In this document: positions 5,992 through 12,000 of the stretch, piece by piece
Layout: each line of letters begins with the position of its first letter
Numbering within the stretch: position 1 is the first letter of the stretch
Source of the DNA: Candidatus Micrarchaeota archaeon
Lineage (GTDB): Archaea; Micrarchaeota; Micrarchaeia; Norongarragalinales; SBBD01
Length of the DNA: 20,842 nt
Direction of reading: 5' to 3'
Assembly (NCBI GenBank): GCA_038046605.1
Contig: JBBSVW010000023.1
Span: forward strand, 53,870 to 74,711
Position numbers and translations under genes: made by a program
The notes under the pieces: model-generated
Seen by the model: only the letters and a program-made list of their open reading frames with translations
What the model was told of the DNA's origin: nothing
Database searches by the model: none

Positions 5992-6050
5992 AGTAAGTAA
6001 TACTCACGGAAGGGTTTTTTTAACGTAGGGGATAACACTTGTTGGATAGC

Positions 6051-7598
6051 ATGGCAGCATACAAGCCAACAGGCAAGGATTGGGTATGGGCGCACAGGAG
6101 GAACATGTCCCTCCTTCAGGTGAACATATTTGCCGATGGGCTCGAAGGGAAGGGCTATTTCCCGGCAGTCAGGTTCAACCGCAAAAATTACCTGGCAAGG
6201 ATTGTGAAGGGGGAGGGCGCCTACATTTACTACGATAATGGCGAGCTGAAACGAAACACACAAGCATTCCATAGGGATATGACAAATGGCAGGTGCACAC
6301 CCAAAAAATTAAGGAGGCTGTCGGAGAGGTTTTTTTCCGATGCGAAAATTGCGGTTGGAGAATTTAGGGGAAACCTTGCGGATATGGATAATGCCGCATT
6401 GCTTTTGCGATTCAAAAAATTCAGGCGGGCAATGACAATTGGCCCGATAATTACAGTGCAATTGTGGGGCATCGAATCTTGCTGGGATCCAAAATTTGCC
6501 CTCCCAAAATTCCTTGAAAAACGACTTGGAAAGTTGGGGAAGGCAAATGATTACCAAAAATGCATCGAAATTCTTTCAGCCGGGGAGGGGAAGAGCATTC
6601 CGCTGCTGGAAAGGGAAAGTTTCCTTTCAATTGCATGCAGGATGAAAAATAATGATGAGGTAAGAAAAGCAATCCAAGCCGGTTCTGCAACCAAAATCAA
6701 GTCAGCATTTGAAAAATATCCCAAGCTGGAGAGGGATTTTAGTAGGCACATTAACGAATTCGCATGGACAACAACCGAATACCAAAGCGAGCCATGGGGC
6801 AGGGGAAAATGGCGGTTAGCAATGCGCCGTGAAATGGGAAGGGATTGCAAAAATGAGCTGGATGAACTTTTGCAACGCCAAAAAAATGCAGTCGAGGAAA
6901 ACAGGAAGTTGTTGAAAAGATTGCAGCCTCCTGAAAAAATAATGCGCATCCTCCTTAACCTTGAGGAATTCATCCGGCAGAGGGATTGGGCAAAGGGGGA
7001 ATATTCGGCAATTTACCTGAAATGGCAGCCGCTTCTTAACGAATTGGCACGGAGGATGGGATGCAGGGTGGAGGATGTTACTGCGCATACCCTGGATGAA
7101 ATTGAAGAGTTCCTAGAATCAGGCAAGAATATCCCTGGAGAGGAAATTGCTCAAAGGAAACGGGGCTGCATTGTTATTTCCATTGGTAAGCCGTTCCATG
7201 CTCATTCAAATGGGCTATTGGAAATTGAAAGGAAGGAAAAATTGGCACCCGAAGGAATTGAACCAAAAAACCGAACCGAAGTATTTGGAATTGTGGGTTC
7301 GTCTGGCTATGCAAAGGGAAGGGCAAGGGTGGTAAGGGCGCCCGAGGAGATTGATTTGGTCAAGAATGGGGAAATCCTAATCACGTACATGACCACCATG
7401 GAATTCACGCCGGTTTTCAAGAAAGTTGCTGCGGTCGTGACAGACGAAGGCGGGCTCTCATCACATGCGGCCATTGTAAGCAGGGAATTCGGGCTTCCGT
7501 GCATTGTTGGCACAAAGCGGGCAACTAAAGTTTTCAAAACGGGGGATATCGTCGAGGTAGATGCAAGAAAAGGAATTGTGAGGAAAATCACCCCTTAG
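6051..7598 (+). CDS. PEP-utilising enzyme mobile (His) domain protein with large helical N-terminal region, no recognisable ATP-grasp domain
   Basis: C-terminal AKGRARVV..GEILITYMT..AAVVTDEGGLSSHAAIVSREFGLPCIVG. ATG at 6051. Confidence 0.85.
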   Translation: MAAYKPTGKDWVWAHRRNMSLLQVNIFADGLEGKGYFPAVRFNRKNYLARIVKGEGAYIYYDNGELKRNTQAFHRDMTNGRCTPKKLRRLSERFFSDAKIAVGEFRGNLADMDNAALLLRFKKFRRAMTIGPIITVQLWGIESCWDPKFALPKFLEKRLGKLGKANDYQKCIEILSAGEGKSIPLLERESFLSIACRMKNNDEVRKAIQAGSATKIKSAFEKYPKLERDFSRHINEFAWTTTEYQSEPWGRGKWRLAMRREMGRDCKNELDELLQRQKNAVEENRKLLKRLQPPEKIMRILLNLEEFIRQRDWAKGEYSAIYLKWQPLLNELARRMGCRVEDVTAHTLDEIEEFLESGKNIPGEEIAQRKRGCIVISIGKPFHAHSNGLLEIERKEKLAPEGIEPKNRTEVFGIVGSSGYAKGRARVVRAPEEIDLVKNGEILITYMTTMEFTPVFKKVAAVVTDEGGLSSHAAIVSREFGLPCIVGTKRATKVFKTGDIVEVDARKGIVRKITP

Positions 7599-9090
7599 AA
7601 ATTATTCTTATTGTTCCAATATTGGCGTTAACTTCTATGAGATCCCCATCTTTTAGGATTTTGGTAGCAAATTTTGTTTGGAGCACCGTAGGTGTTTTGA
7701 ACTCCCTTGCAACCGTAGCCGCATGGGATATAAGGCCGCCCATATCCGCCACAATTGCGGCAGCGAGCTTCAAGTATTGTGTGAGCTCAGTAGAAATATC
7801 GTGAGATACCAAAATATCGCCCTTGCGGAACTTATGATGGTCTTTTTGAGAACGAATTATTCTTACAATTCCGATTACTTTTCCGGGATAAACTGCAAGG
7901 CCCCTTAATTCTTGGTTTTGAGCTATCACTTCCTTGCGGATTAGCTTTTTTGCCATTAAGTATGCGCTTTTTCCCGAATAGATGGTTATTTCCCCATTTA
8001 CCATAAGGACTGCTCGCTCACGCATCCTTTTCAGCATCATATTCCTATCTGCCTTCCTTTTTTTCTTGAGCAGGTAGGCAATTTCATCTGGCACAAGGTA
8101 TTGCACCTCAAGCCAGGTAAGCCCCAGCCGTTTTCCAATTTCAGTCATTAAGGGGCGCATTAGGAAAAGTGCATTCACCATGATTTCCTTCGTATGGTCA
8201 AGCACAATTGCCATTTGCTGCATTGCTTGGACCAGCGCTTTAAATTTTCCATTTGGATGCTTCAAGAAAAAGCGCTTTTGTTCGTTTAGGACCGCCCTTA
8301 ACATTGCCTTTGGAGATTTGGATAACCCCACCATGCCTTCAAAATTTGCCATCCTCTTTCTTAGTTGCAAACGGTAATCGTTTACTACCCATGGATCCAT
8401 CATATATTCCATATGGAACCAGCCGCATTCCTTTTCGAGTCGATGTAGCCCATCGATTGCGTTCTTTGAGGAGATGAAACGGTCAAACTCCCTAGTTGCG
8501 GGCTTTCTTTTTGAAAAATGGCCGATGAATTCGGATTCAATTTCCCAAAATAACTGCTCCTCCTTTTGGGGCAGGCTCTGGCGGGGCGGAACAAGAAGCA
8601 TTGAGGAAAATTTCAATAGGCTTTGGGGGTCAGCACGTTCTTTACGGCTAAGCGTTTTTTCCAATTCTTGGTTGAAATAGTCTTTCATGTTTTGGGCAAT
8701 CAACCCAAAAATCATGGGTGGGTGGTTCAGGAAGGCACGGCGGTATGCAAACTCGAGTTCGTAAATAAGCTGCGCATTCGAAACGCCCCGGTACGATTTA
8801 TTTAGCCTTTTTTGAAGTTCGGCAAATGGTTTTTGATAGAAAGCAATCAAATTCTTGAAAAATCCCTCCGAATATCTACCTTTTTCAAATTCCCGCAATT
8901 GTATTTTGAGAAGTTTACCAAATTCGTCCTCCCTTAGGCAAAAGGCGGCCAATTCTCCCCTAGCATGGGTGAAAAAATTATGGAATTTGACATCAGTACC
9001 TGGCATCTGCTCATTCATAACAAATGCCGCGCCATAATTCGAAAAAAGCGGCTTGTTGCGGGAGCCTATATCAAAATACTTGGCAGCCAT
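7588..9090 (-). CDS. Second PEP-utilising mobile (His) domain protein, convergent paralog
   Basis: C-terminal PGKVIGIVRII..GDILV..AAIVADMGGLISHAATVAREFKTP. Shared mid-region motif (GWFHMEY..DPW vs AWTTTEY..EPW); 11-bp 3' overlap. Confidence 0.85.
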   Translation of the reverse strand: MAAKYFDIGSRNKPLFSNYGAAFVMNEQMPGTDVKFHNFFTHARGELAAFCLREDEFGKLLKIQLREFEKGRYSEGFFKNLIAFYQKPFAELQKRLNKSYRGVSNAQLIYELEFAYRRAFLNHPPMIFGLIAQNMKDYFNQELEKTLSRKERADPQSLLKFSSMLLVPPRQSLPQKEEQLFWEIESEFIGHFSKRKPATREFDRFISSKNAIDGLHRLEKECGWFHMEYMMDPWVVNDYRLQLRKRMANFEGMVGLSKSPKAMLRAVLNEQKRFFLKHPNGKFKALVQAMQQMAIVLDHTKEIMVNALFLMRPLMTEIGKRLGLTWLEVQYLVPDEIAYLLKKKRKADRNMMLKRMRERAVLMVNGEITIYSGKSAYLMAKKLIRKEVIAQNQELRGLAVYPGKVIGIVRIIRSQKDHHKFRKGDILVSHDISTELTQYLKLAAAIVADMGGLISHAATVAREFKTPTVLQTKFATKILKDGDLIEVNANIGTIRIISKG

Positions 9091-9279: not shown

Positions 9280-9810
9280 ATGGAACTCCTCCCGATCTCA
9301 AAATCAACCGCAGACGCGCTTACGAAGAACGCATCCAGCCTCCTTAAGCAGGTGGAAAAGAAGGGCGAAGTCAAAATCAAGCTCAATAGCGATGGAAATT
9401 TGGAGCTTGACGGGGAGAGTGGCAACATCTGGGCAGCTGAGCAGGTGATCCGTGCGCTTAATTTTGGCTTTTTGCCACAGCAGGCTTTTAAACTTTTCAG
9501 CGATAACTACTTCCTCGAAATCATAGACCTAGCCCTTGTGCTCTCAAACCAAAAGGCAGTTGATAGATACAAGGGGCGCATAATTGGCGCAGGTGGGAAG
9601 GCAAAGGCAACGCTTACAGAGATCACCGGCGCCTACCTTGCCATTTCGGGCAACAAGGTTGCGGTCCTTGGGGAGTACGATGATTTGCAGCTTGCAAAAG
9701 AGGGGATTTTGCGCCTTTTGGAAGGCTCGCCGCATACGGGAGTATACAATTATCTGGAAAAGAAGAATAGGGAAAGGAAGTACAACATGAAGGGAATTGA
9801 ACGAAAGTGA
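9280..9810 (+). CDS. KH-domain RNA-binding ribosome biogenesis protein (Dim2/Pno1/Krr1 family)
   Basis: IRALNFGF.P..AFKL, RYKGRIIGAGGKAK (KH GxxG), LLEGSPHTGVYNYLE; upstream of top6B as in the conserved archaeal cluster. Confidence 0.9.
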   Translation: MELLPISKSTADALTKNASSLLKQVEKKGEVKIKLNSDGNLELDGESGNIWAAEQVIRALNFGFLPQQAFKLFSDNYFLEIIDLALVLSNQKAVDRYKGRIIGAGGKAKATLTEITGAYLAISGNKVAVLGEYDDLQLAKEGILRLLEGSPHTGVYNYLEKKNRERKYNMKGIERK

Positions 9811-9824
9811 AGGAATTTTATTCA

Positions 9825-9940
9825 TAAATAGGAAGGGGAGAGGCGACACGAGTGGGGAACGCTTCCAGAACCTTCGAGGTTCTGGGCGTGCTAAGAACCC
9901 TCGGGGTTCTGACGCAACGTAGTTGCCCCATAGGTGTCGA
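9825..9940 (+). mobile_element. Hairpin element E2 (homolog of E1 with an expanded two-hairpin apical insert)
   Basis: TAAATAGGAAGGGGAGAGGCGACACGAGT-GGGG...CCCC-ATAGGTG-TCGA. Inner hairpins CCAGAACCT/AGGTTCTGG and AGAACCC/GGGTTCT. Confidence 0.55.
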
Positions 9941-9987
9941 AGATTCGGGAAAGGAAGTACAACATGAAGGGAATTGAGCGCAAGTAA
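9939..9987 (+). repeat. Diverged second copy of the KH gene 3' end (direct repeat of 9762-9810)
   Basis: 44/49 identical with a 31-bp perfect core (9947-9977 = 9770-9800). Encodes KIRERKYNMKGIERK* vs KNRERKYNMKGIERK*. Confidence 0.95.
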
Positions 9988-10089: not shown

Positions 10090-12000
10090 ATGGTTCAAAA
10101 CAAGCCAGACCCCAGGGAAATGGCAAGGAATGCAATGAAGCTAGCGGTCACCAAATCCGACCAGAAAAGGGATGCAGATAAGGCATCACAAACAAAGCCC
10201 GTAAGCAGCAGTGCTGGCACTCAGGGCGCTGCCGCAGCAATAAAATTGGATACTGGATCGACCCCAAAAGGAGCAGCTGGCGTTAGCAAGGAGCAATCAT
10301 TTGAGGAACTAGAGCACCAGCTTGCAAAGGATTACAAGGAGTATTCCGTTGCTGAATTCTTCAAGAAGAACAGGCAAATGCTGGGCTATTCCGGAAAAGT
10401 CCGCTCATTAACAACAATCATCCATGAATATGTAACAAATTCCGTTGACTCCGCGGAGGATGCAAAAATATTGCCCGACATCAAGGTGGAAATCCAAGAG
10501 CTTAACGACCACCTGAAGGTAATTGTCGAAGATAATGGGACTGGAATCCCAAGGTCCAAGGTTGGAAACGCGCTTGGAGAATTGCTTTCTGGAACAAAAT
10601 TCCACCAAAGGAGGCAAAGGAGGGGCCAGCAAGGAATTGGGGCAAAGGGCGCAACGCTTTTTGCGCAGATCACTACCGGTAAGCCGACAAAAGTCAAAAC
10701 CAGCATTGGCAACTACAAAATTTTTGAGTGCGAAATCTCAATTGATGTCAAGAAGAATTCGCCCATAATCACTAATGAAAGGGAATATAGCGGAAATTAC
10801 CGCGGAACGCGCATAGAGGCCGAATTTGCGGAGGTCACATACAACAGATCCGAATATTCGGTGTACGAGTATTTGAGGATGACGGCTATAGCAAATCCGC
10901 ATGTGCAAATAACACTTATTGAGCCAACCAAGGAAATAATCGTCTTCCCAAGGGCTAGCACCAAAATACCGCCCAAGGCGAAGGATTCCCTCCCACATCC
11001 GCTAGGAATTTCAACATCGGATCTAATGGATATGGCGCTTATTTCCCCAAATCGGAAGATTTCATCCTTCCTTCAGCAGGAATTCACTAGGGTTAGCTCG
11101 GATAAAACAAAGGAGTTGGAAACGCTTGTGAATGCAGGAATCGAGCCGCAGATAACGATTTCGGGGCATAAAGAGCCAAACCCAGAATACCTGGATTTTG
11201 GAAGGCAGCCGGGCACCATGCAATGGCCCCAAGCCGAGCGCATTGTTGCAGCGTTCCAGAAAGTCAAATGGATAGCTCCGGAAACAGATGTTTTGATCCC
11301 AATTGGAGAAGAGCAATTGCAAAAGAGCCTAAAGAACCTGCTCAATCCCGAAACCATGAAAATTGTTGTGCGAAAGCCGCACGTGTTTAGGGGAGGCATT
11401 CCATTCATGGTGGAGGCTGCAATCGCATATGGAGGGAAAGCCGGTGGGGAAGCATCGGCAGCGCAAGCAAAGTCAACTGAAAAAGCGCCCGGTTTGCAGA
11501 GGGTTGGGGAGGTATTGAGGTATGCAAATTCCGTTCCATTGCTATTTGATGCCGGTAGCTGCGCAACCATGGAAGCCGTAAAGAGCATTGATTGGGCAAG
11601 GTATGATTTGCGCAAATGGGAGGAGATGCCAGTTTCTATTTTCATCAATTTCGTTTCCGTCTATGTGCCATACACCGGCGCTGGAAAACTCGCGATTTCA
11701 CAGGAGGAGGAGATCATTGAGGAGATTAGATCCGCGCTCATGGAATGCGCGAGGGATATTTCAATGTACCTCCATTCGCTGCAAAGGGTGGAGGACCAGG
11801 AGAGGCGAAGGCAGATATTCTTCCGATACATCGGGGAGGTTGCTGAGGCGCTCCACGATATCAAGGGAACAGTTGAAAAAGTCAAGATACAAGAAAAGCT
11901 CCGGAAAATTGCGGAGGAGCGCACTAAAATTGCTGAGCAGGAAGAGGAATTGGAGGAAATTGGCGTAGATGAGGATATGAAGAAGGAAGAGGGGGAGTAA
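10090..12000 (+). CDS. top6B: DNA topoisomerase VI subunit B
   Basis: SVAEFFKKNRQMLGY, GHKL motifs EYVTNSVD, DNGTGI, GTKF..QRRGQQGIG; transducer RYANSVPLLF. Confidence 0.97.
   Translation: MVQNKPDPREMARNAMKLAVTKSDQKRDADKASQTKPVSSSAGTQGAAAAIKLDTGSTPKGAAGVSKEQSFEELEHQLAKDYKEYSVAEFFKKNRQMLGYSGKVRSLTTIIHEYVTNSVDSAEDAKILPDIKVEIQELNDHLKVIVEDNGTGIPRSKVGNALGELLSGTKFHQRRQRRGQQGIGAKGATLFAQITTGKPTKVKTSIGNYKIFECEISIDVKKNSPIITNEREYSGNYRGTRIEAEFAEVTYNRSEYSVYEYLRMTAIANPHVQITLIEPTKEIIVFPRASTKIPPKAKDSLPHPLGISTSDLMDMALISPNRKISSFLQQEFTRVSSDKTKELETLVNAGIEPQITISGHKEPNPEYLDFGRQPGTMQWPQAERIVAAFQKVKWIAPETDVLIPIGEEQLQKSLKNLLNPETMKIVVRKPHVFRGGIPFMVEAAIAYGGKAGGEASAAQAKSTEKAPGLQRVGEVLRYANSVPLLFDAGSCATMEAVKSIDWARYDLRKWEEMPVSIFINFVSVYVPYTGAGKLAISQEEEIIEEIRSALMECARDISMYLHSLQRVEDQERRRQIFFRYIGEVAEALHDIKGTVEKVKIQEKLRKIAEERTKIAEQEEELEEIGVDEDMKKEEGE

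Follow-up and report, generated by a model that had tools for sequence, protein, structure and literature searches.

Duplicated gene ends beside a family of small non-coding hairpin elements in a Micrarchaeota lineage

We analyzed a stretch of 20,842 nucleotides (the window) from a contig of a Candidatus Micrarchaeota archaeon, whose genome assembly, denoted G000, comprises 1.64 Mb in 106 contigs and is 90.7% complete. Within the window, an intact ribosome-biogenesis gene for a KH-domain protein, with orthologues in 41 of 41 related genomes, is followed by a short hairpin element and then by a second copy of the gene's own last codons (Table 1). The direct repeat (DR) formed by the functional gene end (DR1) and the orphan gene end (DR2) extends over 49 nt with the stop codons included, whereas the repeat-finding tool delimited it to 47 nt at 91% identity. 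The two copies differ at five positions, AAT/ATT (N/I), AGG/CGG, GAA/GAG, CGA/CGC and TGA/TAA. Their ungapped comparison scored 35, whereas none of 30 shuffled versions of the flank exceeded 11. The start of DR2 lies 177 nt from the start of DR1, exactly 128 nt (9811–9938) separate the copies, and DR2 begins right behind a GGTGTC motif that ends at 9938, corresponding to an offset of 0 from the right end of the element. A preliminary description of the locus had reported the 49-bp repeat with these five differences, a separation of about 128 bp and a second copy starting where the element ends, all of which we could confirm. As this second copy follows the right end of the element, the KH gene stays whole and DR2 is an untranslated orphan.

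Table 1 Features of the KH gene locus in the window.
Feature	Position	Strand	Basis or remark
KH-domain gene, archaeal Dim2/Pno1/Krr1-like, intact, 176 amino acids	9280..9810	+	Open reading frame; Pfam KH_KRR1_2nd 4.2e-08, KH_PNO1_2nd 7.9e-07
DR1, functional gene end, peptide KNRERKYNMKGIERK, stop TGA	9762..9810	+	Last 16 codons and stop of the KH open reading frame
Left arm, starting AT-rich and turning purine-rich (...ATTCATAAATAGGAAGGGGAGA)	9811..9841	+	Right-justified arm comparison
Outer hairpin GGCGACACGAGTGGGG ... CCCCATAGGTGTC, 5' half 9842-9857, 3' half 9926-9938	9842..9938	+	Right end precise
Nested insert in the hairpin loop, two-hairpin module CCAGAACC..GGTTCTGG / AGAACCC..GGGTTCT	9858..9925	+	Module profile
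DR2, orphan gene end, peptide KIRERKYNMKGIERK, stop TAA	9939..9987	+	Without attached upstream gene body
Topoisomerase VI subunit B gene, native downstream neighbour, outside the element	10090..12000	+	Order KH gene to topoisomerase VI subunit B kept in relatives

The insert between the two gene ends is structured and non-coding. Compared with 38 copies from G000, positions 9811–9938 show the arm and hairpin layout of the family, where the arm is a shortened version of the conserved one (...ATTCGCAGAAGTAAATAAGGGGGTAGA) and GAGAG / GAGTGGGG stands where most copies have GTAG. The fold calculated for 9805–9945, which includes the insert, amounts to −54.5 kcal/mol (z = −4.0), and none of 200 shuffles was as stable. 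An Rfam search at E up to 1 gave no match at the element, the sole match in the window being an unrelated frameshift-site elsewhere; ARAGORN detected no tRNA in the window, and the open reading frames (ORFs) across the insert on both strands yielded no Pfam match. With its 128 nt of non-coding DNA, the insert is not a restriction-modification gene unit. We are confident that it represents one copy of a multi-copy, non-coding, non-autonomous hairpin element associated with a long gene-end duplication.

To delineate the family, we defined the element by a conserved left arm rich in purines and, behind it, a GGCGACAC...GGTGTC hairpin whose right end is precise. In the outer family, the conserved arm measures ~28 nt, has ...TAAGGGGGTAGA at its end and leads into a hairpin of the form GGCGACACGNGTAGGGG-loop-CCCCTANAGGTGTC. 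A regular expression returned 41 candidates in G000, of which two without the hairpin and one nested duplicate were dropped, resulting in 38 curated copies; a looser rule gave 50 outer-element copies. The inner module was found at 17 loci of G000 in a profile search at E below 1e-5. For the C9 and C13 copies, its orientation inside the outer hairpin is reversed, indicating that the module nested independently and more than once. The arm core TAA[AG]GGGGTAG occurs at 22 sites in G000, with 17 continuing into a GGCGACAC-type hairpin start and the other five into variant stem-loops. The arm might instead be a native target motif outside the element. The strict arm motif never occurs without a hairpin in G000, whereas in some relatives (L062, L085, L076, L066) an arm-like stretch lies inside the repeat.

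The hairpins are diverse: a set of 60 short ones, drawn from G000 and relatives, contained 59 distinct sequences, with the stems preserved through compensatory changes such as GACAC/GTGTC, AACAC/GTGTT and AACCC/GGGTT. At one inner position of the stem, 26 copies have G-C and 26 have A-T. The exact pattern GGCRACACGNGKRGGGG matches 16 times in G000 and is present in six of the six other genomes of its family; within a 301-genome sample of the phylum it was found in one of the 294 other genomes, and the reversed-pattern control gave 0. A single exact-pattern match in viral contigs lacks the hairpin and was dismissed as chance. As far as searched, the element appears confined to one family-level Micrarchaeota lineage. 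In one G000 arm copy a run of N stands directly behind ...GAGGGGGTAGAGGC, revealing assembly or scaffold breaks inside the element, and the copy numbers are therefore lower bounds.

Duplicated gene ends accompany a large part of the family. In G000, 15 of the 38 copies display a flanking repeat scoring above all 30 shuffles with DR2 located 0–6 nt behind the right end, and four further copies have the second repeat copy 13–33 nt away. Including copies from 22 loci of relatives, such a repeat was present for 35 of 74 copies, at lengths of 14–80 nt and in 8 genomes. For 28 of these 35 repeats an ORF of at least 60 codons enters DR1 from the arm side, comprising 18 3' ends of co-oriented genes and 10 5' starts of genes on the opposite strand, among which a few frames are spurious (tRNA flanks). 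The ends of tRNAs are likewise duplicated at some copies. The intact terminus is always found on the arm side and the orphan always behind GGTGTC. DR1 and the hairpin are 14–66 nt apart, with a unique spacer of variable length (0–40 nt) between DR1 and the conserved arm, and some genes now terminate in the TAA of the arm. The base right behind the right end (GGTGTC/GGTGTT) is G in 38 and A in 30 of the 74 copies, amounting to 68 with a purine, which indicates either that the element is one base longer or that joining prefers a purine. The repeat itself differs at every element copy, and since each copy has its own, there is no common att core. Repeat spacing over the 35 loci is distributed modulo 3 as 10/10/15, showing no frame bias, and a suspected gradient, from identical sequence at the junction to diverged sequence towards the arm, was not borne out (60 versus 75 differences in the two halves). 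Individual loci illustrate the range of arrangements: C55:21488 is a clean case with 36 identical nucleotides and the stop codon supplied by the arm, C18 has a near-identical stretch of 50 nt followed by a diverged yet homologous tail, and tandem units of gene end, arm and hairpin occur at C73, C9:49136/49240, L071 and L062.

We next compared the two copies of each repeat codon by codon. Over 28 repeat pairs, 68 synonymous and 40 non-synonymous codon differences were counted (63% synonymous), including two spurious tRNA-flank frames. When the same numbers and kinds of changes were placed randomly, 20.9% were synonymous (standard deviation 3.7%; 5000 simulations), and not one of the 5000 simulations reached the observed value. 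A model with selection on one copy, where the functional copy accepts silent changes only and the orphan drifts, allows at most ~35% synonymous differences by our own calculation and was rejected with P = 3e-9. Period-3 patterns of the differences are clear in C34, C53, C73 and C90. For the KH locus taken alone, four or more synonymous changes out of five have a probability of 0.008 under random change and of 0.054 if selection acted on DR1 only. The preliminary description had regarded the four silent changes as unexpected for a neutrally decaying copy, a view that the family as a whole bears out overwhelmingly. As the copies differ mainly at wobble positions family-wide, they diverged while both were working gene ends, which sets the orphan apart from a target-site duplication under neutral decay. 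Purifying selection has left its signature in the orphans.

A stack of gene ends in G000 extends this observation to comparisons between orphans. At C73:31334-31866 (locus L100, 2535-3067), five in-frame copies of the end of a 774-amino-acid secretion-ATPase gene are separated by four different arm and hairpin units, with one hairpin containing a further nested insert. The four extra copies span the last 11–17 codons of the gene. All five end in ...YLAKPLLKK plus a stop codon (TAA, TGA, TAA, TAA, TAG), their pairwise nucleotide identities are in the range of 67–86%, and three units share their junction codon. Between orphans, the ratios of synonymous to non-synonymous differences are 7:2, 8:2, 7:1, 8:1, 9:0 and 3:1. 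As two non-functional copies cannot diverge synonymously in place, these orphans were working gene ends while diverging. In the last 30 nt, units u1 and u3 are nearest to the allele of relative G005 (27 and 25 matches, respectively) and u4 is nearest to that of G006 (23 matches); for u5, a hand count from the sequences gave 26 of 30 matches with G006 and 21 of 30 with G005.

Comparison with relatives showed that the element recurs at orthologous gene ends. Two of the 11 family genomes shown, G000 and G002, have an element at the KH gene end, each with a repeat of its own. At the G002 site lies a single hairpin of 39 nt; the repeat there spans ~37 nt, its copies show two silent differences, and the orphan has lost one codon. 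Nine of the 10 relatives shown have an empty site, including G001 (82% identity) and G005 (78%), where one gene end and no insert is present, as expected for a single-copy empty site. The larger element or integrase island that had been considered for this position in relatives was thus not observed, the G002 hairpin being smaller than the insert in the window. Both KH copies of G000 contain a derived stop-loss extension (GIERK before the stop) that G001, G005 and G006 lack; since the two copies share it, the G000 duplication is younger than the split from G001 (82% protein identity). As judged from these sequences, it is independent of the duplication in G002. Just past the stop codon of the G006 KH gene (L032) we noticed ...GGCGGGCATCCCAAAC..., which is like the motif at the right terminus of a different hairpin subfamily (GACCAACCC...GGGTTGGTC type) and may be the remnant of an element lost from this site.

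Likewise, an Hsp20-like gene is followed by the element in G000 and G003 (two of six), at different junctions. The 61-nt repeat of G000 (C34; L086, 1417-1600) shows 11 synonymous and one non-synonymous codon differences, and in G003 (L093) DR2 ends in KIE plus stop, like the sister genome G002, whereas DR1 ends in KIN plus stop. For the ATPase gene, the element is present in G000 and G003 (two of 10) and joined at the same codon, with a synonymous to non-synonymous ratio of 4:0 for the G003 repeat. The site is empty in the eight other relatives, and the G001 contig ends before it. By a rough estimate, recurrence at three of the three genes examined is unexpected from ~40–50 elements distributed over ~1600 gene ends.

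Enzymes that might mobilize the element were sought by Pfam searches. In G000, neither RVT_1 nor Phage_integrase was detected at its completeness of 90.7%, in a search that did not extend to serine recombinases, Cas1 and other nucleases; in the positive controls, 14 named genomes, RVT_1 was found in 3 and Phage_integrase in all 14. A diversity-generating retroelement, a reading prompted by the KH locus where DR1 has A at four of the five differences, was rejected given the absence of RVT_1 and of any adenine bias, with A in DR1 at 44 of 140 differing sites versus 32% A in the composition. A single IS200-type Y1 transposase gene (Y1_Tnp) is present in G000 at C9:24297-24650, GC-rich and standing alone. 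Its immediate flanks are other stem-loops and not family hairpins, unlike a RAYT gene flanked by its repeats, and a copy of the family arm and hairpin with an insert of ~50 nt lies ~1.1 kb away. The IS200 family is not known to make target duplications. Within C9:22797-26150 (L057), the Y1 gene adjoins an ORF of 277 amino acids with a LAGLIDADG-like motif, recognized by eye.

Precedents exist separately for small hairpin repeats, for long target duplications and for displaced gene ends; their combination is undescribed in the literature searched. Like the present family, the Rickettsia palindromic elements are small, non-autonomous, structured, taxon-specific repeats that show nesting and are tolerated at or inside genes. 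Integrative elements whose attP replaces the 3' end of the target gene leave an intact end, the insert and a displaced end, both ends being coding-competent. The order is the same here, but there is no integrase, cargo or common att core, and the target sites vary. Of the earlier proposal that the locus resembles the diverged replacement gene ends of integrative elements, the replacement remains, as the silent changes fit a functional one, whereas the integrase-type element does not (no Phage_integrase, no common att core). Insertion with long and variable target duplication was reportedly described by Nobusato and coworkers in 2000. We know of no report of repetitive extragenic palindromes (REPs) with long duplications of the neighbouring gene end.

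Further comparisons draw on parts of the papers cited. With REPs, bacterial interspersed mosaic elements (BIMEs) and REPINs, which are GTAG-tagged palindromes (PMC3733652), the present family shares short, GC-rich and diverse palindromes at gene borders, compensatory stems and arrays. In most copies GTAG stands 5' of the hairpin (GGGGGTAGA) and, as GTAGGGG, in the inner stem, which may correspond to the tag of REPs, but the unit is longer here and includes the arm. Unlike REPs and REPINs, as portrayed in the part of that paper used, the family has no RAYT gene flanked by its hairpins and possesses a conserved, non-palindromic arm of ~28 nt. Miniature inverted-repeat transposable elements, or MITEs, are described in the pertinent part of a prokaryotic census as having terminal inverted repeats of at least 10–15 bp and duplications of 2–10 bp (PMC11602168). 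They are similarly small, non-autonomous, structured and taxon-specific, nest and lie at or inside genes, but the ends here, arm versus GGTGTC, are not inverted copies and the duplications measure 14–80 nt. The literature searched contains no description of this Micrarchaeota element family; the supplementary tables of the MITE census, which might list such repeats, fall outside that coverage.

Two further systems come closer. Furuta, Abe and Kobayashi (2010; PMC2853133) describe, in the sections considered, inserts without a mobility gene that are flanked by site-specific repeats over 30 bp, single-copy in insert-free relatives and often situated at a gene 3' end or a tRNA gene; most cases are in naturally competent bacteria, and the authors left the mechanism open. 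Unique repeats of more than 30 bp, single-copy empty sites and the lack of a mobility gene in the insert are shared with our family. In contrast, their inserts are kilobase restriction-modification genes of bacteria, no archaeal case having passed the screen in those sections, whereas here a non-coding hairpin of 50–130 nt is present in dozens of copies per genome. Synonymous divergence of the repeats, as seen here, is not reported for that class in the part consulted. For Rhs, contact-dependent inhibition (CDI) and type VI secretion system (T6SS) effector-immunity loci, orphaned 3' regions are described, and their displacement via homology-facilitated illegitimate recombination is proposed in the corresponding part of PMC5361080. 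On our reading, both settings would have in common a new end from another strain, an upstream homology anchor, an old end pushed downstream and strings of orphans like the alleles of other strains. The ends discussed there encode different toxins or immunity proteins, with diversification being the point, whereas here the same peptide is retained in housekeeping genes (KH protein, Hsp20, secretion ATPase) and tRNAs are also affected. Moreover, the border here is always the right end of a small hairpin, unlike at the loci treated there. By analogy, and within the parts of both papers used, 3'-end displacement (PMC5361080) would be the closest described process and the long variable target duplication (PMC2853133) the closest footprint.

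A displacement of this kind could proceed as follows. Incoming DNA from a related lineage would carry a gene end, the arm and the hairpin together. Homology inside the gene would anchor recombination with the resident chromosome on the left, while on the right an illegitimate or microhomology join would connect the right end of the hairpin to a point 14–80 nt inside the resident gene end. The resident gene end would thereby be shifted downstream, and repetition of the process would result in stacks of orphan ends. At the KH locus, a second small two-hairpin repeat has landed in the loop of the outer hairpin. This full inter-lineage mechanism, in which alleles from different lineages were joined at the right end of the hairpin, is our preferred explanation, with a probability that we place slightly below even. 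Three of its points are inferred, namely the recombination between lineages, the identity of the imported copy and the agent cutting at the hairpin's right end. A more far-reaching version, in which gene terminus and hairpin are a travelling unit between diverged archaeal lineages that uses the host gene as homology handle, needs no element-encoded enzyme and leaves stacks of dated fossil alleles, is conceivable but rather doubtful. It would amount to a mode of DNA transfer not yet described for archaea, in which every arrival displaces a resident gene end and the stacks preserve a record of recombination between lineages of uncultivated DPANN archaea.

Several observations weigh against an inter-lineage origin. 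The allele affinities of the C73 stack and the KIE and KIN endings in G003 point to orphans resembling foreign alleles, but the former are based on 30 nt per unit, and the KH orphan has no matching foreign allele. No donor allele was found for the KH locus, with nothing foreign matching either copy: the KH protein retrieved one locus from metagenome contigs (78% identity), with no closer strain, and five loci from genome contigs, none closer than 83%. Donor and recipient lineages, the assignment of which the preliminary description had called for, could not be distinguished at this locus, where both copies share the GIERK ending and the relatives agree with DR1 rather than DR2 at the two 5' differences. 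In DR2, the change from N to I hits a residue conserved in seven of seven genus genomes and resembles ordinary decay, and three of the four silent changes are within the lineage-specific GIERK tail, where constraint was possibly weak. The evidence for an inter-lineage origin is thus thinner at the KH locus itself than family-wide. Within the family, some pairs are purely non-synonymous (C9-928 and L076, 0:3 each), C100 shows three amino-acid differences, and 10 of the 35 repeats show no differences, the outcome expected from simple duplication in situ. The mechanism gives no reason for a join that is always at the right end of the hairpin, and the tandem arrangement at the KH locus is based on the assembly and on contigs, not on reads. 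Finally, homologous or illegitimate recombination between DNAs 10–30% diverged over ~50 nt is inefficient in bacteria where measured, according to the part of PMC5361080 considered.

The identical repeats, among them the clean case C55:21488, would be readily accounted for by ordinary transposition, in which an unknown enzyme makes a long, variable staggered cut and 14–80 nt are duplicated in situ; the survivors would be those spanning gene termini, later modified by mutation and by overwriting from element-free relatives. Such insertions with long target duplications are documented (PMC2853133, in the part cited above), the geometry with DR2 0–6 nt behind a precise right end is that of a target duplication, and the two changes in the KH orphan next to the junction look like decay. 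However, divergence in situ would reach at most the ~35% synonymous differences of the one-copy model and not the 63% observed, and in the C73 stack the differences between orphans are synonymous as well. Transposition also leaves the unique spacer of 0–40 nt between DR1 and the arm unexplained, would need a strong target preference for the recurrence at all three genes in sister species, and has a single IS200-type gene as its sole candidate enzyme. We therefore regard it as a serious but unlikely alternative. Replication slippage or template switching at the hairpin, with re-priming upstream, tandem duplication and later loss of the second hairpin, would fit the tandem units of gene end, arm and hairpin noted above, the inclusion of the arm in the repeat at L062, L085, L076 and L066, and the common junction codon of three C73 units. 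Slippage yields identical copies, though, and cannot give divergence that is synonymous only; in addition, the hairpins differ within one stack and most loci have a single hairpin, rendering this explanation improbable.

The remaining alternatives have considerably lower probabilities. Selection might act on DR2 in place if both copies were used, with the insert removed from the RNA, bypassed, or the orphan translated as a small ORF. In line with this, the orphans keep frame and stop codons, the KH spacing of 177 nt corresponds to 59 codons, and the GTG of GGTGTC is in frame with DR2. Yet DR1 already ends in a stop codon and the insert contains in-frame stops, the spacing over all loci lacks a frame bias, the insert matches no Rfam family and its ORFs no Pfam domain, and by eye, with no formal search made, we found no bulge-helix-bulge motif at the junctions, such that use of both copies appears very unlikely. 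At protein-gene targets, attL and attR frame a functional end, the insert and a displaced end, and this same layout, together with the resemblance of C18 to a crossover core with an element-borne end, would fit the scar of a conventional integrative element whose attP, carrying a replacement gene end, recombined with the KH gene before most of the element was deleted. With no Phage_integrase in G000, no island in the 10 relatives shown and no common core, 35 loci would need 35 separate deletions, each leaving the same hairpin, and we consider such a scar highly improbable. Lastly, the assembly could have collapsed two gene-end alleles or a small circle into a tandem. Support for the assembly comes only from Logan contigs of three runs (X1–X3; two groundwater samples, one study). 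They showed neither a joint lacking the 177-nt unit nor a circle junction, both of which contigs are unable to reveal. Three pieces with 0 differences were obtained, 206 nt (9771-9976), 147 nt (9830-9976) and 207 nt (9771-9977) in length. All of them run through the insert and extend into DR2, two starting within DR1 and the one from the remaining run just behind it. These contigs break at a 31-nt identical core, so that the graph alone cannot order the pieces, which would leave room for an artefact. The insert-bearing piece was nevertheless recovered without differences from two samples, its depth in X1 (6.3) matches that of the upstream flank (6.44; downstream flank 3.5), and the same architecture is found at 35 loci in 8 genomes, making an artefact extremely unlikely. 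Runs X5–X7 of a second study contained small shares only, corresponding to other copies of the module.

Two further observations concern other parts of the window. The segment 1838-2030 is tRNA-like, with a CAT anticodon loop (...CTCATAA...), long insertions and, further on, a T-arm-like GGGTTCAAAT; it was not called by ARAGORN and may be a multi-intron tRNA. In addition, the genes at 6039-7598 (+) and 7588-9090 (−) are convergent and overlap slightly, encoding 519 and 500 amino acids, and in each of them Pfam recognized only a C-terminal PEP-utilizers (swivel) domain.

For the biology of these archaea, the data describe a very small non-coding element that leaves essential genes whole, since it carries their termini along or copies them, and the resulting spare copies retain coding-type sequence. 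In metagenome-assembled genomes of Micrarchaeota, such elements break assemblies and create spurious small ORFs and seemingly split genes. If the inter-lineage mechanism is true, a structure-specific break or join at the hairpin would be its key step, and the stacked orphan ends would be natural markers of who recombined with whom. The duplicated gene ends would then constitute direct genomic evidence of frequent DNA exchange among ultrasmall episymbiotic archaea.

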